Below are positions 6,684 through 37,904 of a stretch of 41,468 nt of DNA, piece by piece. The position numbers and the translations under genes are program-made. The notes beneath the pieces are model-generated. The model ran no database searches. It saw only the letters and a program-made list of their open reading frames with translations, and had not been told where the DNA came from. This DNA is from Escherichia phage HK106. Position 1 is the stretch's first letter. Each line of letters starts with the position of its first letter. The stretch is from sequence record NC_019768.1; one strand, given 5' to 3'.

Positions 6684-7388
6684 ATGTCTGCACTTTATGA
6701 AAAATCGCAGCTGACGAAGATCCTTATTTCCTCCCTGCCAGCCACCAAAGAAACGATGGATTCCGCCACCTTTCTCGATCTGAGTTGCACCATCAAAGAA
6801 ATTCAGTTCACTGGTGGCCAGAAGCAGGATATCGACGTAACAACACTTTGCTCTACCGAGCAGGAGAACATCAACGGCCTGCCTTCTCCGTCAGAAATCT
6901 CTCTGTCCGGCAACTTCTACAATAATCCAGCGCAGGACGCCTTGCGTGATGCGTATGACAACGACACCACTTACGGCTTCCAGATCATCTTCCCGTCAGG
7001 TAATGGTTTTAAGTTCCTGGCCGAAGTTCGCCAGCATACCTGGTCATCTGGTACCAATGGTGTTGTGGCAGCTACATTCTCACTGCGCCTTAAAGGCAAG
7101 CCTGTCCCGATTGACTCTGTACTTAAACTGACCACTGATCTTCCTTCCTCACTGTCTGTAGCGGTGGGGGCTGCGATCAGCATGGCTGTAGTAGCTGCCG
7201 GTGGTAAGCCTCCGTATGCCTACACCTGGAAGAAGGCAGGTAGCACCGTCAGCGGGCAGACATCCGATACCTTTAATAAAGCCACCGCAGTTTCAGGTGA
7301 TGCAGGTGATTACACCTGTGTGGTTACGGATTCTTCTTCTCCGGTCAAAACGGTTACCTCAGCTGCCTGCACCCTTACTATCAGTTAA
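6684..7388 (+). CDS. major tail protein with C-terminal Ig-like domain
   Basis: 234-aa ORF with SD CAGGAG; C-terminal about 80 aa resemble a bacterial Ig-like domain (…GDAGDYTCVVTDSSSPVKTVTSAACTLTIS); precedes the G/GT chaperone pair. Confidence 0.75.
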   Translation: MSALYEKSQLTKILISSLPATKETMDSATFLDLSCTIKEIQFTGGQKQDIDVTTLCSTEQENINGLPSPSEISLSGNFYNNPAQDALRDAYDNDTTYGFQIIFPSGNGFKFLAEVRQHTWSSGTNGVVAATFSLRLKGKPVPIDSVLKLTTDLPSSLSVAVGAAISMAVVAAGGKPPYAYTWKKAGSTVSGQTSDTFNKATAVSGDAGDYTCVVTDSSSPVKTVTSAACTLTIS

Positions 7389-7422
7389 TGGAGATGCCGG
7401 GTTGTCCCGGCATGGATAAGCG

Positions 7423-7809
7423 ATGTCGCAAACTTTAAAACAATTAGCCATGGCGAAAATGGCTGGCTTTCGCCATAAGACGGTCGTTGTCCCTGAGTGG
7501 GAAGGTGTCAAAGTGGTTCTCCGTGAGCCGTCAGGTGAAGCCTGGCTGCGCTGGCAGGAGGTGGTGAAAGGGGGGGCCGACGATGAAAATGTGTCGGTAT
7601 CGGAAAAGGCGCACCGTAATCTTTGCGCTGACGTGGTGCTCTTCATTGACGTTCTGTGTGACACCGATAAGCAACCGGTATTCAGCGTAGACGAAGAAGA
7701 GCAGGTGCGTGAAATTTACGGGCCAGTGCACTCACGTCTGCTCAAACAGGCGCTTGACCTGATCAACAATGCGGACGAAGCGCGGGAAAAGTCTCAACCC
7801 CCGGCGTAA
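7423..7809 (+). CDS. tail assembly chaperone G
   Basis: 128-aa ORF between major tail and tape measure genes; overlapped at its 3' end by a -1 frame ORF. Confidence 0.7.
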   Translation: MSQTLKQLAMAKMAGFRHKTVVVPEWEGVKVVLREPSGEAWLRWQEVVKGGADDENVSVSEKAHRNLCADVVLFIDVLCDTDKQPVFSVDEEEQVREIYGPVHSRLLKQALDLINNADEAREKSQPPA

Positions 7810-8096
7810 AGTTTCTGATGTCGCTTGCGCTCCGGATGGGGCGCACGCTCTCAGAGCTTCGGCAGAATATGACGGCAAGCGAGCTTCTGATGTGGATTGA
7901 GTACGACAGGCAAAGCCCGGTTGGCGATATTCGCGGTGATATCCATGCAGCGCAGATTGTCTCTGCCATCTACGGCTCGCAGGGGGCAAAAGTACCGCTG
8001 GACGATGCGATCCTGCGCTGGGGTGGTGATGAGCAATCAGAACCGAAGGACCCGTTTGCAGGGCTTGAGGCGGCACTTACAGCTGCGACACAATAA
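7423..8096 (+). CDS. tail assembly chaperone GT fusion (predicted programmed -1 frameshift)
   Basis: -1 frame is open from at least 7782 to 8096 and overlaps the end of G; candidate slippery run GGGAAAAG at 7784-7791; downstream product resembles the phage tail assembly protein T family. Confidence 0.5.
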
Positions 8097-8153
8097 TTGC
8101 TTCACATGCCTTCAATGTAGCGATACGCTCTTTCCTTAAGTAAAGGAGGCGTT

Positions 8154-8342
8154 ATGGAACCACTGGTAGTAGTGTTTGGAATATTCGGCTGGCTGATAAA
8201 TCTAATTGTGATTTTTTATTTATTACGGTTTAGCACAAGGGCAAATGAACAAGTTGAAGCCCTTAAAGAGATAAATAAAAAGCAAGATGCGCAAATAGAT
8301 TTATTAATACAAGTCGCTCACCAAAGAAAAGACAGTTTATAA
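8154..8342 (+). CDS. small single-TM moron protein, HK97 gp15 / YebO-like putative superinfection exclusion protein
   Basis: 62 aa, strong SD AAGGAGG, N-terminal hydrophobic helix then charged helix; sits between GT and tape measure where HK97 carries the gp15 moron; followed by its own terminator. Confidence 0.55.
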   Translation: MEPLVVVFGIFGWLINLIVIFYLLRFSTRANEQVEALKEINKKQDAQIDLLIQVAHQRKDSL

Positions 8343-8345
8343 CTC

Positions 8346-8372
8346 ACGACCCGCTATCAAGCGGGTTTTTTT
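8346..8372 (+). terminator. intrinsic terminator
   Basis: CCCGCT-atca-AGCGGG followed by TTTTTTT. Confidence 0.7.
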
Positions 8373-8384
8373 ATGGGTGAAAAT

Positions 8385-11300
8385 ATGGCTACGTTGCGCG
8401 AACTGATCATCAAAATATCTGCAAACTCTCAGTCATTCCAGTCTGAAATTTCTCGTGCTTCAAGAATGGGGAATGACTATTACCGGGTAATGCAGACTGG
8501 AGGACGCCAATCGGCCGCAGCTTCGCGTGAAACTCAGCGTGCCTTGGCTGAGGTAACTAGTCAAATAAACACCGCGAAGGCCTCAGCACTGGGAATGGCT
8601 GGTGCATTTGCTGGAGCATTTGCGACTGGTCATCTTATATCGCTGGCCGATGAATGGAGCTCTATTAATGCCAGGCTAAAGCAGGCTTCCCAGTCGTCAG
8701 ATGATTTCACGGAGTCCCAGCGGGCGCTGATGGATATTAGCCAGCGAACCGGAACCGCCTTCTCTGATAATGCGAGTCTTTTTGCGCGTTCAGCCGCTTC
8801 TATGCGTGAATATGGCTACAGTTCAGAAGAGGTTCTGAAGGTAACCGAGGCTATATCAACAGGGCTTAAGCTGTCAGGCGCAAGCGCGTCTGAAGCGAGT
8901 TCGGTAATCACGCAGTTCAGCCAGGCTCTGGCGCAGGGTGTTCTTCGAGGCGAGGAATTTAACTCCGTCAACGAAAACGGTGATCGAGTTATCCGTGCTC
9001 TTGCCGCAGGGATGGGTGTAGCTCGTAAAGATCTGAAGGCAATGGCCGATCAGGGGATGCTAACCGCAGATAAAGTTGTCCCGGCCCTGATAAGTCAACT
9101 TGGCACTATGCGTGGTGAATTTGAGGCAATGCCGCAGACCGTTTCTGCTGCCACGACGAAAGTCGAAAATGCTTTCATGGCATGGGTAGGTGGCGCTAAT
9201 GAAGCCACTGGTGCGACAAGTACTCTTGTTGCCGTATTGAATACGGTTTCTGACAATATAGACACTGTGGCTACGGCTGCCGGAGCTTTGGCTGCGATAG
9301 GTGGAGCTCGCTATCTTGGAGGGATGTTTGGCGATCTTGGGAACCAGACGGCGCAATTAATAGATGCCAGAAAGAACGAAATTGCGCTCGCAGCTGCAAG
9401 GGCTGAATCTGCTACCCAATCACAACGCAAGGCCGCCGCCGATGCTATTGCTGCTGAGCGAGCTTACCAGCTTGCTCAGTCAGAACTTGTGCTGGCAAAG
9501 AATACTAATGCTGAGGCTACTGCCACTCAAAATGCCATATCCAAGCGCCGGGCAATGATTACAGCAAATGCGGCACTGGTACAGTCAAACAGAGCCGTTG
9601 CAGCCTCTCAGCAGGCACTTAACTCTGCAACATCAGTGCTGGGGCTTGTAAAAACTGGCGCTACGGGTCTTTTGTCGTTAGTTGGTGGTTTGCCAGGAAT
9701 TTTAATGTTGGGTGCTGGGGCGTGGTACACGATGTATCAACGCCAAGAACAAGCCAGGGAATCTGCAATCAAATATGCGGACACAATAGAGCAGGTACGA
9801 GATAATCTGAAATCAATGTCTCAGACGCAGATATCCGCCAACCTTGGACAGGCGAATATTTCACTGGATGCTCAGAATAGTGCGATTGAACAGCAGAAGC
9901 AGAAAGTTGCTGAATTATCCAATCAACTTTATAACGCAAAATTAGCAGCCAATTCTGCTTCAGAGGGGACATGGCTGTATAACGATGCGGTTGAGAAAGC
10001 CGCAGACTTTGCTTCAGAACTTGCGGTTGAAGAAGGCCGACTTGAGCAAATGCTCAATAAAAGAAAGCAAACACAACAGTTAATAAACGACATAACTGAT
10101 CAGGCTATAAATAAAACAGTAGAAATGGCTGGCGCCGTAAGTTCTCTTACAGAGATGTATGACCGGCTGAACAAGGTTTCCAGACAGTCTACAGCAGTGT
10201 CCCCACCAAAATATGCAGGACCTGTACTTCCTGCGCTTGATAATAAGCAACAACAAGCTATTGAGAAAGCACAGCGACAGCTTGAGTTATCTGGCCTTCA
10301 GGGTTTGGATAAGGCTCGAAAGCAGGCAGAATTCGATGCATCTGATCTGAACCTTCCAGCTGGTTGGCGTGAGAAATATGTCAGCATGGAAGTTGAGTCT
10401 GCCAGGCAATTACAAGCAATTCGTAACTCAAGCCGCCATAAGGGTGGAAAATCCGAGGCGGAAAAAACAGCTGATACCTATGACAAGCTGATCAAGCAGC
10501 AAAAAGAGCAGATCGCTCTGCAAGGGCAGAATACCGAGCTGGCAAAGGTTAAATATCAGGTAAGCCAGGGTGAGCTTTCTACGCTAAGTCAGGCCCAGAA
10601 AGCCGAAGTTATGCGTAATGCTGCTCTCATCGATCAGGTTAAATTGCGTGAGCAACTGCGAAATTACGAAGCCAACCTTGCTGACAGTAACGCCAGCGCC
10701 CGCGCAGCCAATGAAGCGCAACTGCTGGGATACGGGCAGGGAACCAGGTTCCGTGAAAGACTTCAGGAGCAGTTCAATCTGCGTAAGGAGTTTGAGCAGA
10801 AGAATACCGATCTTCTCCGCCAGCGTCAGGCTGGTGAAATCGACGAGACGTTCTATCAGCAGGGGCTGGCACTTAATAAGCGCTACCTCGAAGAGCGCCT
10901 GCGCGACCAGGAGGGATATTACGCAGCTTCTGATGCGCAGCGTGACGACTGGATGACGGGACTGTCTGAGGGTTATGCGAACTGGGTGGACGAAGCGACA
11001 GATTACTCCTCCATGGCCGCTGACGGCATGAAGCAGGCCATGGGTGGCGCGGTCACCACGATCACCGACATGCTCAATGGCAACGTTGACAGCTGGAAGG
11101 ACTGGGGCGTGAGCGTACTGAAGATCATCCAGAACGTTCTGGTGAACATGGCTGTTGCTAACGGCGTCAGTTCAATTGGTTCTCTCTTCAGCTTTGGCGC
11201 ATCTTCCGCCGCTGCCGCCAGTAGCGGTACTGCAATTCAGAACGCTGGCGCGAACTTCACCTTTAACGCGAAGGGTAATGTTTACGACTCTCCGTCCCTG

Positions 11301-11651
11301 AGCGCATACAGCAATGGCGTGTTTCAGACCCCTCAGCTTTTTGCTTTTGCCAAAGGAGCGGGTGTGTTTGCAGAGGCTGGACCTGAAGCCATTATGCCGC
11401 TTACCCGTGCTGCTGATGGTTCGCTTGGCGTTCGGGCTGTTGGCACTGGTGGTGGTCAGGCTGTATCTTCGGCTCCACAGGTTTACATCACCATCGATGG
11501 CAACGGAAATACTTCCACGCAGACTTCACCCGGCCTTGAGCAATTTGGTGCTGATGTCGGTAAATATATTGATCAGCGATATAAGCAGAACATCATGCGA
11601 GATATTCGCCCTGGCGGTGACATCTGGAACGCAATGAAAGGAACCCGATAA
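8385..11651 (+). CDS. tail tape measure protein
   Basis: about 1088 aa, long alpha-helical/coiled-coil protein with Gly/Ala-rich C-terminal region; an in-frame ATG at 8373 lies inside the terminator T-tract, so 8385 is preferred. Confidence 0.9.
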   Translation: MATLRELIIKISANSQSFQSEISRASRMGNDYYRVMQTGGRQSAAASRETQRALAEVTSQINTAKASALGMAGAFAGAFATGHLISLADEWSSINARLKQASQSSDDFTESQRALMDISQRTGTAFSDNASLFARSAASMREYGYSSEEVLKVTEAISTGLKLSGASASEASSVITQFSQALAQGVLRGEEFNSVNENGDRVIRALAAGMGVARKDLKAMADQGMLTADKVVPALISQLGTMRGEFEAMPQTVSAATTKVENAFMAWVGGANEATGATSTLVAVLNTVSDNIDTVATAAGALAAIGGARYLGGMFGDLGNQTAQLIDARKNEIALAAARAESATQSQRKAAADAIAAERAYQLAQSELVLAKNTNAEATATQNAISKRRAMITANAALVQSNRAVAASQQALNSATSVLGLVKTGATGLLSLVGGLPGILMLGAGAWYTMYQRQEQARESAIKYADTIEQVRDNLKSMSQTQISANLGQANISLDAQNSAIEQQKQKVAELSNQLYNAKLAANSASEGTWLYNDAVEKAADFASELAVEEGRLEQMLNKRKQTQQLINDITDQAINKTVEMAGAVSSLTEMYDRLNKVSRQSTAVSPPKYAGPVLPALDNKQQQAIEKAQRQLELSGLQGLDKARKQAEFDASDLNLPAGWREKYVSMEVESARQLQAIRNSSRHKGGKSEAEKTADTYDKLIKQQKEQIALQGQNTELAKVKYQVSQGELSTLSQAQKAEVMRNAALIDQVKLREQLRNYEANLADSNASARAANEAQLLGYGQGTRFRERLQEQFNLRKEFEQKNTDLLRQRQAGEIDETFYQQGLALNKRYLEERLRDQEGYYAASDAQRDDWMTGLSEGYANWVDEATDYSSMAADGMKQAMGGAVTTITDMLNGNVDSWKDWGVSVLKIIQNVLVNMAVANGVSSIGSLFSFGASSAAAASSGTAIQNAGANFTFNAKGNVYDSPSLSAYSNGVFQTPQLFAFAKGAGVFAEAGPEAIMPLTRAADGSLGVRAVGTGGGQAVSSAPQVYITIDGNGNTSTQTSPGLEQFGADVGKYIDQRYKQNIMRDIRPGGDIWNAMKGTR

Positions 11652-11653
11652 AA

Positions 11654-11992
11654 ATGGCTATCGAAACTTTCACCTGGTGCCCACGACTTAACGCTGAGGC
11701 AGATATAAATTTCCGCGTCAGGAAAGCACAGTTTGGTGATGGATATGAGCAGGTTTCAGGGGATGGATTGAACACCAGAACCCAGCAATGGACGCTCAAC
11801 TTCACTGGCAACGAAACCTACATTTCTGCCATTAAATCTTTTCTCGACAGGCATGAAGGAACGAAAGCCTTTCAATGGAAGCCACCGCTCGAACCTTTGG
11901 GTTTGTATCGTTGCGAAACGTATAAACCCACCGGGCTTGGCGCGGGGAAATTCAACCTTGAAGCAACATTCATCCAGGCATTTAAACCATGA
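11654..11992 (+). CDS. minor tail protein M
   Basis: 112 aa directly after tape measure, lambda M-like size and position. Confidence 0.8.
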   Translation: MAIETFTWCPRLNAEADINFRVRKAQFGDGYEQVSGDGLNTRTQQWTLNFTGNETYISAIKSFLDRHEGTKAFQWKPPLEPLGLYRCETYKPTGLGAGKFNLEATFIQAFKP

Positions 11993-12747
11993 GCTTAAAC
12001 GCAGATTATCAGAAGCTGGAATCCGGAAACGATGTTCGTCTGATTGAGGTGGACGGTTCTTCCTTTGGGCTAACGGACGTTCTCCGCTTTCACAATTACA
12101 GCATTCCCCACACAGAAGCGGAAATCATCGCCGCTGGTGGGGATGAGTCCAAGCTTCCGGCGAAACCAATCTGGTGGCAGGGAAATGAATACGCCGCCTG
12201 GCCGTATCAGCTGGAAGGTCTGGAGAAATCAACCAGTGGGAGCAATGCAACGCCATCACTGACGGTTGCGAACATCGAAAGCTCCATTTCTGCTCTGTGT
12301 CTTGCGTATGACGATCTGCTGCAGGCTAAAGTCACTATTCACGACACAAAAGAGAAATATCTCGATGCCAGGAATTTCGCAGACGGTAACCCTTCTGCAG
12401 ACCAGACTCAGGAAAAGCTGCAGGTCTGGTATATCGACGGGAAAACGGGCGAGCTTGCCGGTGAAACCGTTGAATTTGTTCTGTCCAGCCCGATGGACCT
12501 GCAGGGGCAAATGATCCCGACGCGACAGCTTCATTCCCTGTGTACCTGGTGCATCCGGAATAAATATCGCACCGGCGACGGCTGCGACTATGCCGGCACC
12601 CGCTATTTCGACAAAAACAACAACCCGGTAAGCGATCCGTCGCTGGATGAATGCAACGGCACGCTGACGGCCTGCAAACTCCGATTCGGCGAAAATAACG
12701 AACTCTCGTTTGGTGGCTTCCCGGGCACGTCTTTGATCAGGAGTTGA
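11989..12747 (+). CDS. minor tail protein L
   Basis: 252 aa, ATGA overlap with M; Cys-rich C-terminal region as in lambda L. Confidence 0.8.
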   Translation: MSLNADYQKLESGNDVRLIEVDGSSFGLTDVLRFHNYSIPHTEAEIIAAGGDESKLPAKPIWWQGNEYAAWPYQLEGLEKSTSGSNATPSLTVANIESSISALCLAYDDLLQAKVTIHDTKEKYLDARNFADGNPSADQTQEKLQVWYIDGKTGELAGETVEFVLSSPMDLQGQMIPTRQLHSLCTWCIRNKYRTGDGCDYAGTRYFDKNNNPVSDPSLDECNGTLTACKLRFGENNELSFGGFPGTSLIRS

Positions 12748-12748
12748 T

Positions 12749-13459
12749 ATGCGTCAGAAAACCGTCGATGAGATTATGGCGCATGCTGCAGCTGAATATC
12801 CTCGCGAGTGTTGCGGCGTGGTGGCGCAGAAAAGCCGTGTTGAACGTTATTTCCCGTGCCGGAATCTTGCCGCGGCGCCGGAGGACAATTTTGTCCTTTG
12901 CCCGGAAGATTACGCAGCTGCTGAGGACTGGGGTACGGTGATCGCCATCGTTCACAGTCACCCTGACGCCACAACGCAACCGAGCGAACTGGATAAAGCG
13001 CAATGCGACGCAACGCTTTTACCCTGGCACATCGTGAGCTGGCCTGAGGGGGATTTGCGCACCATCCAGCCGCGTGGGGAACTGCCGCTGCTGGAGCGTC
13101 CGTTTGTGCTTGGCCACTTCGACTGCTGGGGTCTGGTAATGAGCTATTTCCGGCAAACGCATGGTATCGAGCTCCACGATTACCGGGTTGATTATCCCTG
13201 GTGGGAAAACGACTATCCGGACAACTTCTATCAGGATTGCTGGTATGAGTGCGGATTCCGTGAATTCGACGGACCACCGAAACCCGGCGATATGGTGATC
13301 ATGCAGGTCCAGGCTGATAAGTGGAACCACGCTGGAATTCTGCTGGAGGGCAATATGCTGCTGCACCACCTGTACGGACATCTGAGCCAGCGCGTGCCGT
13401 ATGGTGGCTACTGGCAGGAAAGGACGATGAAGATTCTTAGACATCAGAATTTTATTTAA
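12749..13459 (+). CDS. tail assembly protein K (MPN/JAB + NlpC/P60-like)
   Basis: 236 aa; HSHP metal-binding motif and a later DCWG cysteine motif, as in lambda K. Confidence 0.8.
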   Translation: MRQKTVDEIMAHAAAEYPRECCGVVAQKSRVERYFPCRNLAAAPEDNFVLCPEDYAAAEDWGTVIAIVHSHPDATTQPSELDKAQCDATLLPWHIVSWPEGDLRTIQPRGELPLLERPFVLGHFDCWGLVMSYFRQTHGIELHDYRVDYPWWENDYPDNFYQDCWYECGFREFDGPPKPGDMVIMQVQADKWNHAGILLEGNMLLHHLYGHLSQRVPYGGYWQERTMKILRHQNFI

Positions 13460-13506
13460 CAAACTGTCACTGATACTATCGTGTAGTACACGGCAAGGAG
13501 AACGAT

Positions 13507-13731
13507 ATGTATACAGTTGGGTTTGGTTGGATCTTCGTCGGTATTTTTATTGGGTTAATTCTCTGGTTTTTCATCAACCGCGCCAGCGTCAGAGCGAACA
13601 GGCAGGTTGAATTACTTGAGTCTATCGACCAGAAATTATCAAAAATAGTAGATCCAAACTTCGAGGCAAATAACAAAGACCAGTCGAAAGAAAACTACCT
13701 TGAAGAAGCAAGGAAAAAAGCTGGGCTTTGA
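13507..13731 (+). CDS. second small single-TM moron protein, paralog of the 8154-8342 product
   Basis: 74 aa, SD AAGGAG; N-terminal TM helix then shared motif R-A-S/T-V/R-R-A-N-x-Q-V-E-x-L; own terminator downstream; inserted between K and I. Confidence 0.55.
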   Translation: MYTVGFGWIFVGIFIGLILWFFINRASVRANRQVELLESIDQKLSKIVDPNFEANNKDQSKENYLEEARKKAGL

Positions 13732-13740
13732 GAGCGTAAA

Positions 13741-13770
13741 TTAATAAACCACCTACGGGTGGTTTTTTTA
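13741..13770 (+). terminator. intrinsic terminator
   Basis: AACCACC-tacg-GGTGGTT followed by TTTTTTA. Confidence 0.7.
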
Positions 13771-13780
13771 TGGGGGCAGC

Positions 13781-14389
13781 ATGCAAGAGGTAATGACAAG
13801 AATTGAGCTAAGTGGCGTGCTAGCTAAGACATATGGAAGGGTTCATCACCGTCTGGTTCGCACTACTGCTGAAGCCATTAATGCACTCGCGAAAACCATC
13901 AATGGATTCGAGAAATTCTTAAACACAAGCAAAGCCCGAGGGCTGACGTATGCCGTTTATAGAGATAAAAAGAATATTGGCGTTGATGATCTCGGCTTTC
14001 CCGTCACCGGCGAAGTGATCCGGATTGTCCCTGTAGTAATAGGGAGTAAAAAGGCTGGTCTTTTGCAGACGATCTTGGGGGCCGTGCTTATTACTGCTGC
14101 TGTGTTGACTGGCCCCGGCGGTATTGGCGCTGCTTTCGCTGCTGGTGGATTGACGGGGTTTGCTGCTGCCACTGGTGCCTCGTTGGTCCTCGGTGGGGTT
14201 ATTCAGCTGCTTTCACCGCAGCCATCAGGCATAGCCAGTAAACAAAGCGCAGATAACCGTGCATCGTATGCGTTTGGCGGGGTAACCAACACTGCAGCGC
14301 AAGGCTACCCGGTGCCTCTGCTTTATGGTAAGCGTCGAATCGGCGGAGCGATTATTTCTGCCGGAATTTATGTCGAAGATCAGCAGTAG
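13781..14389 (+). CDS. tail assembly protein I
   Basis: 202 aa; N-terminal ubiquitin-like region and Gly/Ala-rich hydrophobic C-terminal half resembling lambda I. Confidence 0.8.
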   Translation: MQEVMTRIELSGVLAKTYGRVHHRLVRTTAEAINALAKTINGFEKFLNTSKARGLTYAVYRDKKNIGVDDLGFPVTGEVIRIVPVVIGSKKAGLLQTILGAVLITAAVLTGPGGIGAAFAAGGLTGFAAATGASLVLGGVIQLLSPQPSGIASKQSADNRASYAFGGVTNTAAQGYPVPLLYGKRRIGGAIISAGIYVEDQQ

Positions 14390-14401
14390 ATAACTAACCT
14401 T

Positions 14402-14431
14402 TTTTCTGGCCACCTTCGGGTGGCTTTTTTA
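14402..14431 (+). terminator. intrinsic terminator between I and J
   Basis: GGCCACC-ttcg-GGTGGC followed by TTTTTTA. Confidence 0.65.
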
Positions 14432-14441
14432 TGGGCGCAAT

Positions 14442-17400
14442 ATGGCTACAGATAAAGTGTTAAAAGGCCGCAAGGGCGGCAGCTCAAGTTCCCGAACTCC
14501 TACCGAACAGCCTGATGATCTGCAATCTGTAGCGAAGGCAAAAATCCTCGTTGCGCTTGGGGAAGGTGAGTTTGCAGGGCAGCTCACCGGCAAAGATATC
14601 TACCTGGACGGAACAGCGCTGGAGAATGCTGACGGCTCCCAAAACTTCAGCGGGGTAACGTGGGAGTTTCGCGCGGGAACTCAGGCGCAAAAATATATTC
14701 AGGGTATTCCCGGTACCGAAAACGAGATCAGCGTAGGAACTGAGGTATCAAGTGCCACAGCCTGGACGCGCACGTTTACCAATACGCAGCTTTCAGCAGT
14801 TCGCCTGCGTCTTAAATGGCCCTCGCTTTTCAAACAGGAGGACGACGGCGATCTGGTGGGTTACTCGGTCAATTATGCAATTGACCTGCAGACGGACGGC
14901 GGCGCATGGCAGACGGTACTCAATACCAGCGTGACCGGAAAAACGACGTCTGGTTATGAGCGCAGCCACCGTATCGATTTACCGCAGGCTGGCAGCACCT
15001 GGACAATACGTCTGCGTAAGATTACCTCTGACGCCAACAGCGCGAAGATCGGCGACACGATGATGCTGCAGAGCTTCACCGAGGTGATTGACGCCAAACT
15101 GCGCTACCCGAACACCGCGCTGCTCTACGTCGAATTCGACTCAAGCCAGTTCAACGGCTCTATTCCTCAAATTTCATGCGAACCGCGCGGCCGCGTTATC
15201 CGCGTTCCAGATACCTACGACCCTGAAACCCGCACTTATAGCGGTACATGGACCGGTGCGTTTAAGTGGGCATGGACGGATAACCCTGCGTGGATTTTTT
15301 ACGACCTGGTTGTTTCTGACCGGTTCGGCCTTGGGCACCGTTTGACCGCTGCGAATATTGATAAATGGACGCTTTATCAGGTTGCTCAGTATTGTGATCA
15401 GATGGTACCAGACGGCAAAGGGGGCAACGGTACAGAACCACGTTATACCTGCAACGTGTACATTCAGGACCGGAACGACGCCTACACAGTCCTGCGTGAT
15501 TTTGCCGCTATCTTCCGTGGCATGACCTACTGGGGCGGGGATCAGATTGTGGCCCTGGCTGACATGCCGCGCGATGTTGATTACAGCTATACGCGCGCTA
15601 ACGTTGTTGGCGGTCGCTTCACCTATTCGAGCAGCACCACGAAAAGCCGCTACACCACAGCGCTGGTTTCATGGTCAGACCCGGGTAACGCTTATGCCGA
15701 CGCGATGGAGCCGGTATTTGAGCAGGCGCTGGTGGCGCGGTACGGCTTCAATCAGCTGGAAATGACAGCCATCGGCTGCACCAGGCAGTCAGAGGCGAAC
15801 CGAAAGGGGCGCTGGGGTATTCTCACCAATAACAAGGATCGCGTTGTTTCGTTTGATGTCGGGCTGGACGGAAACATTCCGCAGCCGGGCTACATCATCG
15901 CCGTGGCAGACGAGCTGCTTTCCGGAAAGGTTATGGGCGGCCGCATCAGCGCCGTTAACGGTCGCGTTATCAAACTTGACCGCGTAGCTGATGCAGCACC
16001 AGGTGATCGCCTTATTCTCAACCTACCTTCCGGAGCGTCGCAGAGCAGGACCATTCAGGCCGTGAACGGGGAATCAGTCACAGTCACCACGGCATACAGT
16101 GAGACGCCACAGGCCGAAGCTGTTTGGGTGGTTGAATCTGACGAGCTTTACGCGCAGCAGTATCGTGTTGTCAGCGTCTCCGACAACGGTGATGGCACTT
16201 TCTCAATCACCGGCGCATGGCACGACCCGGATAAATATGCCCGCATCGATACCGGAGCCATCATTGACCAGCGGCCGGTGAGCGTGATCCCGCCTGGTAA
16301 CCAGTCGCCGCCTGCGAACATCGTGATCAGCTCGTTTTCCGTGGTTCAGCAAAATATCAGCGTCGAAACAATGCGCGTGAGCTGGGACCAGGCGCAGAAC
16401 GCTATCGCCTATGAAGCGCAATGGCGCCGCAACGACGGGAACTGGGTTAACGTGCCGCGCACCTCCACCACGTCATTCGACGTCCCGGGGATTTATGCCG
16501 GGCGCTACCTGGTGCGGGTGCGCGCAATCAATGCCGCAGAAATTTCATCCGGATGGGGCTATTCAGAAGAGAAAACGCTGACGGGTAAAGTGGGCAATCC
16601 ACCGAAGCCTGTTGGCTTTATCGCCTCTGAAAACGTGGTGTTCGGTATCGAGCTGAACTGGGGATTCCCGGCGAATACCGACGACACGCTGAAGACGGAA
16701 ATTCAGTACAGCCTGACCGGTACTGAAGACGATGCCATGCTGCTGGCCGATGTGCCTTACCCGCAGCGCAAATATCAGCAGATGGGCCTTAAGGCTGGGC
16801 AGATTTTCTGGTACCGCGCGCAGCTGGTTGACCGCAGCGGTAACGAGTCAGGTTATACCGGCTGGGTTCGTGGGCAGGCCAGTATCGATGTTTCTGACAT
16901 CACAGATGTGATCCTTGAAGACATCAAAGGGTCTGAGACGTTCAAAGACCTGATCGAGAACGCTGTGGACAGCAATGAAAAAATTGCTGGCATGGCTGAC
17001 GACATCAAACAGGCCAATGATGAACTTGAGCAGCATGCGAAGGATATCGCCAAAAACGCCCAGGACGTCGGGAAGGTTCAGACCAGCGTTAATGAGCTTT
17101 CCAGCACGGTCGGGAATGTTTCGTCTTCACTCAGTCAGCTTGAGCAGACCGTTGCGACGGCTGATACCGCGCTGGGCCAGCGAATCGACAGCATCAGTGT
17201 GTCTATGGACGGCATGACGGGTGGGGTCAAGAACTCAGCCATTGCCATTATCCAGAACGGGCTGGCGCAGGTGGCTGCGCGTAAAACCCTGTCTGCATCG
17301 GTCGCCGGCAACAGCGCGAATCTGGACCGTATTGATGAGGTGATTGTCAACGACAGGGAGGCAACGGCGCGCTCGCTGCTTAGCCTGCAGACGGACGTCA

Positions 17401-29169: not shown

Positions 29170-29595
29170 TTATTTTCTAGATGATGTTGGGGACCAAGGT
29201 AACGTTATAGTATCTAACACTGTGTTTTTGAACATATTTTCAAAAACTGTTTTTGTACATACATATACATAATTTTCAAAAAACCAAGCATTTTCATTAT
29301 AAAAATCCTCAGTTACTTCTTCATCGAGGTCACACTCAAATGTTAGTGTCAAGGTAGCCTCTGCCTTGAACAATACATCCTCACCATCATCAAAATCTTT
29401 TTTATCGCGAGGGAAACCAGTTATCGATGGCTTAACTTCAATAAAGAGCCAATTTCCATCTTCATCTTTTTGAGGAACAACGTGATGCTCAGAAAATTTT
29501 AAGCTATATTTTCCGCCTTCAGAATTATCACTGTCGTCGATAAAAAGGGAAGAACCCTCGAGATCAAATCCCTTAAAGCGAATTTTATCAAGCAT
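29170..29595 (-). CDS. hypothetical acidic protein, 141 aa, third gene of the hicAB cassette
   Basis: ATG at 29595 overlaps the hicB stop (TGATG); strongly acidic (about 29 D/E against 15 K/R); AT-rich codon usage; no family recognised. Confidence 0.6.
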   Translation of the reverse strand: MLDKIRFKGFDLEGSSLFIDDSDNSEGGKYSLKFSEHHVVPQKDEDGNWLFIEVKPSITGFPRDKKDFDDGEDVLFKAEATLTLTFECDLDEEVTEDFYNENAWFFENYVYVCTKTVFENMFKNTVLDTITLPWSPTSSRK

Positions 29596-30068
29596 CAATG
29601 TGGCACTCCGTTGTCTACTGAAACTTCCCAATAGGTCTCTTCTGTACGTCTACGGGATGAGAAGAAAGTAACTTCTCTAACATCCCTCGGTTTTTCAAAG
29701 TGGTAGTGAACCTCTTTTTTCCCATTAACTGACTCACTGACAGCCTGTTTTACATAATCGTTTAAAGTCATATTCTTAGCTTTAGCAGCTAAATATGCTT
29801 TTTTATGCAGGGATTCACCTATCCGGATGTTAAACGAACCACTCATTGTCTTATCTGGAGATTTTCCTATCTCTTCACAAGTGGAGAGGTAATCGTCCAC
29901 GGCCTCCTCAAAGGCTGCACGGAGTTCTGCAACCGTTGCACCCTCATAAGTGACGAGATCATTTATACATTCGAGTTTTCCATGCATCACCCCATCTTCA
30001 AATGAAATGCTGGAGCTACCATAGTAACCTTTGTATTTCATCAAGTTATTCATGATCATCAATCTCAT
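29595..30068 (-). CDS. hicB: HicB-family antitoxin (RNase H-like fold plus RHH DNA-binding region)
   Basis: …MKYKGYYGSSSISFEDGVMHGKLECINDLVTYEGATVAELRAAFEEAVDDYLSTCEEIGKSP…SFNIRIGESLHKKAYLAAKAKNMTLNDYVKQAV matches HicB pattern; overlaps hicA 3' end. Confidence 0.75.
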   Translation of the reverse strand: MRLMIMNNLMKYKGYYGSSSISFEDGVMHGKLECINDLVTYEGATVAELRAAFEEAVDDYLSTCEEIGKSPDKTMSGSFNIRIGESLHKKAYLAAKAKNMTLNDYVKQAVSESVNGKKEVHYHFEKPRDVREVTFFSSRRRTEETYWEVSVDNGVPH

Positions 30069-30300
30069 CTAACAGCTGTTTAACTTCTTCCAAGACGTAC
30101 CTTTTGAGGGTGTTTTCAGGATGAGGCTCATGAAAAATGACCAATCTATCAACACGTTGGTTGTAAAATTTACGGCCAGAACCTCGTTTAGCATTCAAAA
30201 GCTTGAAGCCATACTGGTTCATGAGAGTAACGAACTCATCCCAAGTAAAATTTTTGGGTAAGCCGTCTAACTTTGACTTTAGCTTTTCCTTTCTTCCCAC
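30046..30300 (-). CDS. hicA: HicA-family mRNA interferase toxin
   Basis: 84 aa, GTG start; …GSGRKFYNQRVDRLVIFHEPHPENTLKRYVLEEVKQLL fits the HicA/YcfA pattern; precedes hicB as in hicAB operons. Confidence 0.7.
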   Translation of the reverse strand: MGRKEKLKSKLDGLPKNFTWDEFVTLMNQYGFKLLNAKRGSGRKFYNQRVDRLVIFHEPHPENTLKRYVLEEVKQLLDEIDDHE

Positions 30301-30663: not shown

Positions 30664-31380
<717 letters not shown>

Positions 31381-31387
31381 TTAAATC

Positions 31388-31453
31388 TATCACCGCAAGG
31401 GATAAATATCTAACACCGTGCGTGTTGACTATTTTACCTCTAGCGGTGATAAT
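31388..31453. promoter_or_regulatory. OR3-OR2-OR1 operators with divergent PRM and PR (lambda type)
   Basis: TATCACCGCAAGGGATA (31388-31404), TAACACCGTGCGTGTTG (31411-31427), TACCTCTAGCGGTGATA (31435-31451); PR -35 TTGACT 31424-31429 and -10 GATAAT 31448-31453. Confidence 0.85.
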
Positions 31454-31468
31454 GGTTGCATGTACTAA

Positions 31469-31678
<210 letters not shown>

Positions 31679-36641: not shown

Positions 36642-37284
36642 TGGCAGCAAATACCGAAATATTTGGGTAGTTGGCGATCTGCACGGATGCTACACGAACC
36701 TGATGAAAAAACTGGAGACGATAGGATTCGACACCAAAAAAGACCTGCTTATCTCGGTTGGCGATTTGGTCGATCGCGGTACAGAGAACGTCGAATGCCT
36801 GGAATTAATCACATTCCCCTGGTTCAGAGCTGTACGTGGAAACCATGAGCAAATGATGATTGATGGCTTATCAGAGCGCGGAAACGTCAATCACTGGATG
36901 CTTAATGGCGGTGGCTGGTTCTTTAATCTCGATTACGACAAAGAAATTCTGGCTAAAGCTCTTGCCCATAAAGCAGATGAACTTCCGTTAATCATCGAAC
37001 TGGTGAGCAAAGATAAAAAATATGTCATCTGCCACGCCGATTATCCTTGTGACGAATACGAGTTTGGAAAGCCAGTTGATCATCAGCAGGTAATCTGGAA
37101 CCGCGAACGAATCAGCAACTCACAAAACGGGATCGTGAAAGAAATCAAAGGCGCGGACACGTTCATCTTTGGTCATACGCCAGCAGTGAAACCACTCAAG
37201 TTTGCCAACCAAATGTATATCGATACCGGCGCAGTGTTCTGCGGAAACCTAACATTGATTCAGGTACAGGGAGAAGGCGCATGA
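36619..37284 (+). CDS. ninI: NinI serine/threonine protein phosphatase (lambda phosphatase)
   Basis: 221 aa from ATG at 36619; metallophosphoesterase motifs GDLHG, GDLVDRG, GNHE. Confidence 0.9.
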
Positions 37285-37904
37285 GACTCGAAAGCGTAGC
37301 TAAATTTCATTCGCCAAAAAGCCCGATGATGAGCGACTCACCACGGGCCACGGCTTCTGACTCTCTTTCCGGTACTGATGTGATGGCTGCTATGGGGATG
37401 GCGCAATCACAAGCCGGATTCGGTATGGCTGCATTCTGCGGTAAGCACGAACTCAGCCAGAACGACAAACAAAAGGCTATCAACTATCTGATGCAATTTG
37501 CACACAAGGTATCGGGGAAATACCGTGGTGTGGCAAAGCTTGAAGGAAATACTAAGGCAAAGGTACTGCAAGTGCTCGCAACATTCGCTTATGCGGATTA
37601 TTGCCGTAGTGCCGCGACGCCGGGGGCAAGATGCAGAGATTGCCATGGTACAGGCCGCGCGGTTGATATAGCAAAAACAGAGCAGTGGGGGAGAGTTGTT
37701 GAGAAAGAGTGCGGAAGATGCAAAGGTGTCGGCTATTCAAGGATGCCAGCAAGCGCCGCATATCGCGCTGTAACGATGCTAATCCCAAACCTTACTCAAC
37801 CCACCTGGTCACGCACTGTTAAGCCGCTGTATGACGCTCTGGTGGTGCAATGCCACAAGGAAGAGTCAATCGCAGACAATATCTTGAATGCGGTCACACG
37901 TTAG
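37281..37904 (+). CDS. Q: Q late-gene antiterminator
   Basis: 207 aa, lambda Q-like including the zinc-binding CRDCHGTG…CGRCKG region. Confidence 0.9.

Follow-up and report, generated by a model that had tools for sequence, protein, structure and literature searches.

The product of gene 15 of bacteriophage HK97 is the textbook phage moron and was the first element to be given this name. The definition of a moron is said to stem from Juhala et al. in 2000. It was reportedly Cumby et al. who in 2012 (said to be J Bacteriol 194:5012) described HK97 gp15 as a superinfection exclusion protein, and the work on exclusion is said to have been published between 2012 and 2015. As described in excerpts of a commentary by the primary authors, the prophage expresses gp15, and the protein is inserted into the inner membrane (PMC3594210). 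There it keeps HK97 and HK75 from injecting their genomes and leaves adsorption unaffected; the block is independent of the immunity group and of repressor immunity, and it is relieved if the tail region is swapped for that of HK022 (excerpts of PMC3594210 and PMC10883804). Hybrids that carry the tail tube and tape measure protein (TMP) genes of HK022 escape gp15 (excerpt of PMC10883804). Neither overexpression nor deletion of yebO, a chromosomal gene of E. coli, had an effect on HK97 in the experiments summarized in the excerpted commentary (PMC3594210). According to an excerpt of a secondary review from 2026, which cites Cumby et al. 2012 and 2015, gp15 acts via the complex of TMP and PtsG (PMC12939059); the excerpts of the primary authors' commentary (PMC3594210) and of a 2024 paper (PMC10883804) call the precise molecular mechanism of gp15 unknown.

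SieA of phage P22, Ltp of Streptococcus phage TP-J34, and Sie2009 of Lactococcus phage Tuc2009 are likewise envelope proteins that a prophage produces and that stop DNA entry once the incoming phage has adsorbed. For both Ltp and gp15, escape has been traced to the tape measure or tail region (excerpt of PMC10883804). In sequence and architecture, all three are unrelated to gp15; Ltp is a lipoprotein, SieA is polytopic in the membrane and larger, and no homology of gp15 to SieA, Ltp, or Sie2009 was detected.

Identity of gene 15

The stretch of DNA analyzed here (the window; 41,468 nucleotides) contains an open reading frame (ORF) on the plus strand at 8154–8342, stop codon included, that was taken from the ORF list. 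It starts with ATG and its 62 codons translate to MEPLVVVFGIFGWLINLIVIFYLLRFSTRANEQVEALKEINKKQDAQIDLLIQVAHQRKDSL. This protein is identical to HK97 gp15 (AAF31105.1) at 61 of 62 residues. The exception is position 14 in the membrane helix, which is leucine here (CTG) and methionine in the experimentally tested HK97 allele (ATG), a conservative replacement. Most alleles have L14, and tblastn recovered a 100% identical L14 protein in HK75, HK446, mEp234, HK544, HK633, and mEpX1. On the DNA level, the gene 15 cassette differs from that of HK97 by one substitution and by one fewer T in the T-run of the terminator, and the larger interval 7400–8900 matches mEp234 at 100% identity and HK446, mEpX1, HK75, HK633, and HK97 at 99.7–99.8%. 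The HK97 record AF069529 annotates the matching gene as "15: Gp15, moron product", followed by a terminator, and in mEp234 the ORF mEp234_013 (AFM76292.1) is annotated at 8154–8342 with a terminator at 8349–8372. The window does not differ from mEp234 at the gene 15 locus, whereas elsewhere it is approximately 99% identical but covers 78–85% of the mEp234 genome.

Length, position, Shine-Dalgarno sequence, terminator, and the flanking genes G and T all match those of gene 15 in HK97. Judged by these alignments, the ORF at 8154–8342 is gp15 itself and not merely a gp15-like protein. The element is already known, and what is reported here is its correct identification rather than a new finding. 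It is very probable that this feature corresponds to the gene 15 moron known from the HK97 group, with a product that blocks injection by phages with HK97-type tails.

Anatomy of the gene 15 cassette

Gene 15 is embedded in the tail operon (Pfam and annotated coordinates as given below, all on the plus strand). It is preceded by the tail assembly chaperone genes G (7423–7809; Pfam Phage_TAC_1, E = 1.6e-60) and T (7818–8096; Pfam Phage_tail_T, E = 1.5e-20), and the HK97 annotation has T produced as a G-T fusion via a -1 frameshift. Downstream follows the tape measure gene (8385–11651), which has about 1090 codons, an annotated start at 8385, and a further in-frame ATG at 8373. Its product represents the presumed target class of gp15. 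The cassette between T and the tape measure gene stands out by its base composition: the GC content is 33% in the gene 15 ORF, 31–39% in the cassette, 55–58% in the flanks, and 49% in the whole window.

The start codon of gene 15 is preceded by the Shine-Dalgarno sequence AAGGAGG (8143–8149, plus strand), which was read from the sequence, matches the consensus at seven of seven bases, and ends 4 nt before the ATG. A strict sigma-70 consensus scan of positions 7300–8700 found no promoter. In a relaxed scan, a candidate sigma-70 promoter, TTCACA-N17-TACGCT, was obtained on the plus strand at 8101–8129 with eight of 12 matches, a score no higher than that of other chance matches nearby. Although the intergenic sequence around it has diverged in the Citrobacter prophages that carry gene 15 orthologues, TTCACA and the spacing are retained there, with TACGAT as the -10 element.

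An intrinsic terminator of the form GACCCGCT-ATCA-AGCGGGTT with a subsequent T-run occupies positions 8348–8372 of the plus strand. Its hairpin (8348–8367) begins six bases past the stop codon and has a stem of 8 bp with five G-C pairs, and the run of seven T ends at 8372. The predicted folding energy is -14.9 kcal/mol, corresponding to z = -3.0 against dinucleotide shuffles. Terminators after gene 15 are annotated in the HK97 and mEp234 records, too. Moreover, a terminator hairpin follows the gene in all three lineages, i.e., in the phage studied here, in the Citrobacter prophages, and in Klebsiella phage P7641, and the stem sequences differ among them. That hairpins with different stems occupy the equivalent place across lineages argues for selection on the terminator structure. 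A search of positions 7000–14500 against Rfam retrieved no structured RNA at the gathering threshold.

The gp15 protein and its relation to YebO

The gp15 sequence contains one hydrophobic segment, located at residues ~3–24 with a Kyte-Doolittle mean of 2.5 over 19 residues, and a C-terminal half with many K, E, Q, and D residues. AlphaFold2, supplied with an alignment of 21 relatives, modeled the protein as one continuous helix from residue 2 to 61 (mean pLDDT 83). In line with these models, gp15 is predicted to be a small single-pass inner-membrane protein. The positive-inside rule further suggests that the N-terminus is periplasmic, with about three residues exposed, and that the conserved charged helix is cytoplasmic, because no basic residues precede the membrane helix and R25 and R29 directly follow it. 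If the charged helix indeed faces the cytoplasm, interference with TMP or PtsG would need to happen inside the membrane or on its cytoplasmic surface.

Among gp15 orthologues, the C-terminal helix, INKKQDAQIDLLIQ(I/V)AH, hardly varies. Between gp15 and the orthologues from Citrobacter, 24 synonymous and 12 non-synonymous differences were counted (pN/pS 0.13), a ratio indicating that gene 15 is conserved under purifying selection. Together with a Pfam score above the threshold and the occurrence of the gene in an equivalent slot in several genera, this places gene 15 beyond chance.

The Pfam match is to the YebO family (PF13974), with 38.7 bits versus a gathering cut-off of 27 and E = 1.2e-9 over gp15 residues 14–59. 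Pairwise alignment to YebO of E. coli K-12 (b1825) yields 38% identity over 48 residues, and the similarity is concentrated where the membrane helix ends and in the motif R-x-S-x-R-x-N-x-Q. The conserved core common to both proteins is I-x-L-I-x-x-F-x-x-x-R-x-S-x-R-x-N-x-Q. E. coli YebO is an uncharacterized protein of 95 aa that is encoded at a chromosomal, non-prophage locus adjoining mgrB and ends in a long acidic tail. Thus gp15 and YebO have the Pfam family and a single transmembrane helix in common, but the C-terminal part of gp15 has diverged and is much shorter, and the acidic tail is absent. On the basis of these comparisons, gp15 belongs to the YebO family without being an orthologue of the chromosomal yebO product.

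An earlier note, prepared from the nucleotide sequence of the window and its ORFs, had anticipated much of this. It had described a 62-aa protein with one transmembrane helix and a charged C-terminal helix, as the ORF list, the Kyte-Doolittle profile, and the AlphaFold2 model confirm, and had pointed to the strong Shine-Dalgarno sequence (AAGGAGG at 8143–8149) and to a terminator of its own, which the 8-bp stem, the T7 run, and the folding energy of -14.9 kcal/mol bear out. Its placement of the gene between the tail chaperone and tape measure genes agrees with the Pfam matches of G and T upstream and the tape measure gene downstream, and the slot is the one that holds "Gp15, moron product" in AF069529. 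The alignments that it had proposed, with HK97 gp15 and with E. coli YebO, were run and gave the relationships described above (61/62 residues, and 38% over 48 residues). Finally, the block of DNA entry by HK97-like phages that it had attributed to gp15 is indeed found in the literature (excerpts of PMC3594210 and PMC10883804).

The junction between T and the tape measure gene

Proteins 74–86% identical to gp15 occur in Citrobacter, Klebsiella michiganensis, Raoultella, and other Enterobacteriaceae, and the prophage copies are named "YebO family protein" in RefSeq. At the five loci examined, in Citrobacter and other enterobacterial prophages, a 59-aa orthologue is located after genes with the Phage_TAC_1 and Phage_tail_T domains and before a gene for a TMP of 1094 aa with the Phage_HK97_TLTM domain. 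Klebsiella phages possess a YebO-family gene whose product is 47% identical to gp15 in the equivalent slot, directly before the gene of a 1128-aa TMP. Among 5426 complete E. coli genomes, the gene 15 cassette is rare and was found in six. Compared to the TMP encoded in the window, those of Citrobacter and Klebsiella are 74% and 50% identical, respectively, and the similarity is best in the N-terminal 300–400 residues. This N-terminal similarity could reflect functional coupling or simply physical linkage.

Other relatives have different contents at the same position. SaltyDalty, AsXd-1, and LAU1 have G and T genes that are 93–95% identical to those of the window, and the similarity stops at 8092, short of the end of T by four bases. 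At the junction of T and the tape measure gene, SaltyDalty (L012, 2204–2497) carries an unrelated ORF of 97 aa with a signal-peptide-like N-terminus, and LAU1 (L013, 3395–3562) an unrelated ORF of 55 aa. HK022 has no gene between the chaperone and tape measure genes, i.e., between gp14 and gp16. As SaltyDalty and LAU1 contain unrelated ORFs there and HK022 contains nothing, the junction represents a variable slot. Gene 15 has several features of a moron, namely patchy presence among close relatives at this junction, a deviant GC content, and its own terminator, and the cassette with its 33% GC is probably of horizontal origin.

Lambda-type immunity region

The repressor gene cI (30667–31377, minus strand) encodes a protein identical to lambda cI (J02459) at 235 of 237 residues, with the substitutions T3A and K71N. 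The adjacent PRM/OR/PR interval (31378–31480) is identical to lambda at 102 of 103 positions; the sole difference lies in OR1, which reads TACCTCTAGCGGTGATA here versus TACCTCTGGCGGTGATA in lambda. The cro gene also matches lambda. At the same time, the cI-cro-cII region is 98.8% identical to HK97, and mEp234 and HK106 match the immunity region at 100% identity. The place of lambda rexA and rexB, left of cI, is taken on the minus strand by the toxin-antitoxin genes hicB (29595–30068) and hicA (30046–30300), and the arrangement in mEp234 is identical.

The whole left arm with the virion module is of the HK97 type at 97–99% identity, and the nearest complete genome is that of mEp234. The possibility of a lambda-like virus with a borrowed HK97 gene was rejected, given that the entire left arm is HK97-type at this level of identity. 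The earlier note had viewed the combination of lambda immunity with an HK97-type injection blocker as layered exclusion. The lambda immunity was confirmed by the matches of cI and the operator region, but the implied novelty was not: the immunity region of HK97 itself shares 98.8% identity, and the idea that lambda immunity and gp15 form an unusual pairing was rejected for this reason. In the HK97 phage group, it is normal for repressor immunity to be combined with exclusion by gp15.

A second YebO-family moron in the tail operon

Gene 20 (13507–13731, plus strand), between the tail genes K (12749–13459) and I (13781–14389), encodes a single-transmembrane protein of 74 aa that also belongs to the Pfam YebO family. 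It is equipped with the ribosome-binding site AAGGAGA and a terminator at approximately 13743–13770. The gp20 and gp15 proteins are 43% identical over 44 residues, both belong to PHROG 5031, and they are paralogues. It is gp20 that is closer to E. coli YebO, with 73% identity over 30 residues. A homologue in Klebsiella phage P7641 (L006, 4983–5216; 77 aa) resembles gp15 in the central helix, KQSAQIDLLIALAH, and has the C-terminal motif YLEEARKKAGL that is otherwise known from gp20. This mixture of both proteins suggests that gp15 and gp20 arose from a single ancestral phage YebO gene.

The counterpart of gene 20 in HK022 is annotated as "gp20, moron gene product" (AAF30371.1) and is intact, as is the copy in the window. 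HK97 gene 20 is unannotated and is interrupted by an amber stop at codon 33, where CAG is changed to TAG. All phages that carry gp15 also have gene 20, and without gene 15 it is found in mEp235, HK542, mEp506, ECP1, and HK022, which have HK022-type tails. In the literature searched, no functional study of gp20 was found. Since the exclusion experiments used HK97, in which gene 20 is truncated, they left room for a role of gp20 in exclusion. It is conceivable, although we would sooner expect otherwise, that gp20 also blocks injection, with a different specificity, and that the two paralogues render exclusion by lysogens of this phage broader than that by HK97 lysogens. Its target might be, for example, phages with a different TMP or another route of entry through the inner membrane.

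Further along the tail operon, the genes I and J are only 52 bp apart (14390–14441). As HK97 and HK022 carry the moron pair gp22/gp23, one gene forward and one reverse, at the I/J junction, the phage is without this pair.

Alternative explanations

The family assignment invites the view that gp15 acts like chromosomal YebO, as a lysogenic-conversion factor for the physiology of the host envelope, and that exclusion is not its real role. This would agree with the Pfam membership, the core motif in common with E. coli YebO, and the RefSeq naming as "YebO family protein". However, the resemblance amounts to 38% over 48 residues, the C-terminal half has diverged, and the acidic tail is missing. 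Moreover, gp15 excludes HK97, whereas overexpression or deletion of yebO had no effect on this phage (excerpt of PMC3594210), and the consistent linkage of gene 15 to HK97-type tape measure genes also speaks against a role in host physiology, which we regard as very unlikely.

Even less probable is a function in the lytic cycle of the phage itself, with gene 15 being a virion or tail assembly accessory or an injection helper instead of a moron expressed by the lysogen. Such a function might be read from the location of the gene inside the tail operon and on the matching strand, from late co-transcription by read-through, and from the tape measure gene that adjoins it in every lineage seen. Yet SaltyDalty, AsXd-1, and LAU1 are without gene 15 despite 93–95% identical G and T, other small ORFs are found in the slot, and HK022 makes tails without the gene. 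The deviant GC content and the separate terminator are likewise difficult to reconcile with a tail component, as is the reported expression from the prophage (excerpt of PMC3594210). At the far end of the scale, a short, AT-rich gene whose PHROG 5031 is labeled "unknown function" and for which PADLOC has no model could be mistaken for a chance ORF or a decaying, functionless remnant in an AT-rich spacer. This explanation has next to no probability: pN/pS is 0.13, the Pfam score exceeds the threshold, the Shine-Dalgarno sequence follows the consensus, and the terminator is conserved via different stems, a pattern of conservation that effectively refutes it. The experimental literature on gp15 (excerpts of PMC3594210 and PMC10883804) also speaks against a functionless ORF.

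Proposed mechanism of exclusion

For gp15 as the exclusion protein of the HK97 group, the layout of the locus suggests the following course of events. The cassette would consist of the candidate weak promoter, the strong ribosome-binding site, the 62-aa ORF, and the terminator, inserted between T and the tape measure gene. In the lysogen it would be transcribed alone, and the terminator would keep the transcript out of the tape measure gene. During lytic growth, as may be expected from lambdoid biology, Q-modified RNA polymerase would pass the terminator and proceed to the tape measure gene and beyond. Late transcription that reads through moron terminators is the standard explanation for lambdoid phages. 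The phage encodes a Q-like antiterminator (37281–37904, plus strand; PHROG 127 "anti-termination protein Q-like", E = 6.6e-83), whose presence fits such late read-through.

Located in the inner membrane as a single-pass protein, gp15 would prevent the genomes of superinfecting phages with HK97-type tails from crossing this membrane and would leave their adsorption unaffected. Following published work as presented in the secondary review, the block may occur where TMP engages the inner-membrane glucose transporter PtsG. The TMP encoded in the window is identical to that of HK97 at 1082 of 1089 residues (99.4%) and shares 28% identity with that of HK022. Because of this near-identity to the HK97 protein, the phage itself falls into the class excluded by gp15, and self-exclusion is expected. 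Lysogens would then exclude their own kind and HK75-like phages at the injection step, whatever the immunity type of the superinfecting phage, and this barrier would add to the lambda-type immunity conferred by cI.

Implications

As a discovery gene 15 carries little weight, but its identification is useful for annotation. Most GenBank records call gp15 a "hypothetical protein", PHROG 5031 bears the label "unknown function", and no PADLOC model matched gp15 or gp20. Because of these labels, the name "YebO family protein", and the lack of a PADLOC model, automated pipelines miss a characterized anti-phage gene. The intact gp20 offers an inexpensive lead. In prophages of Escherichia, Citrobacter, and Klebsiella, gp15-like genes are found together with HK97-type tape measure genes, and this conserved linkage is consistent with TMP as the target of exclusion.
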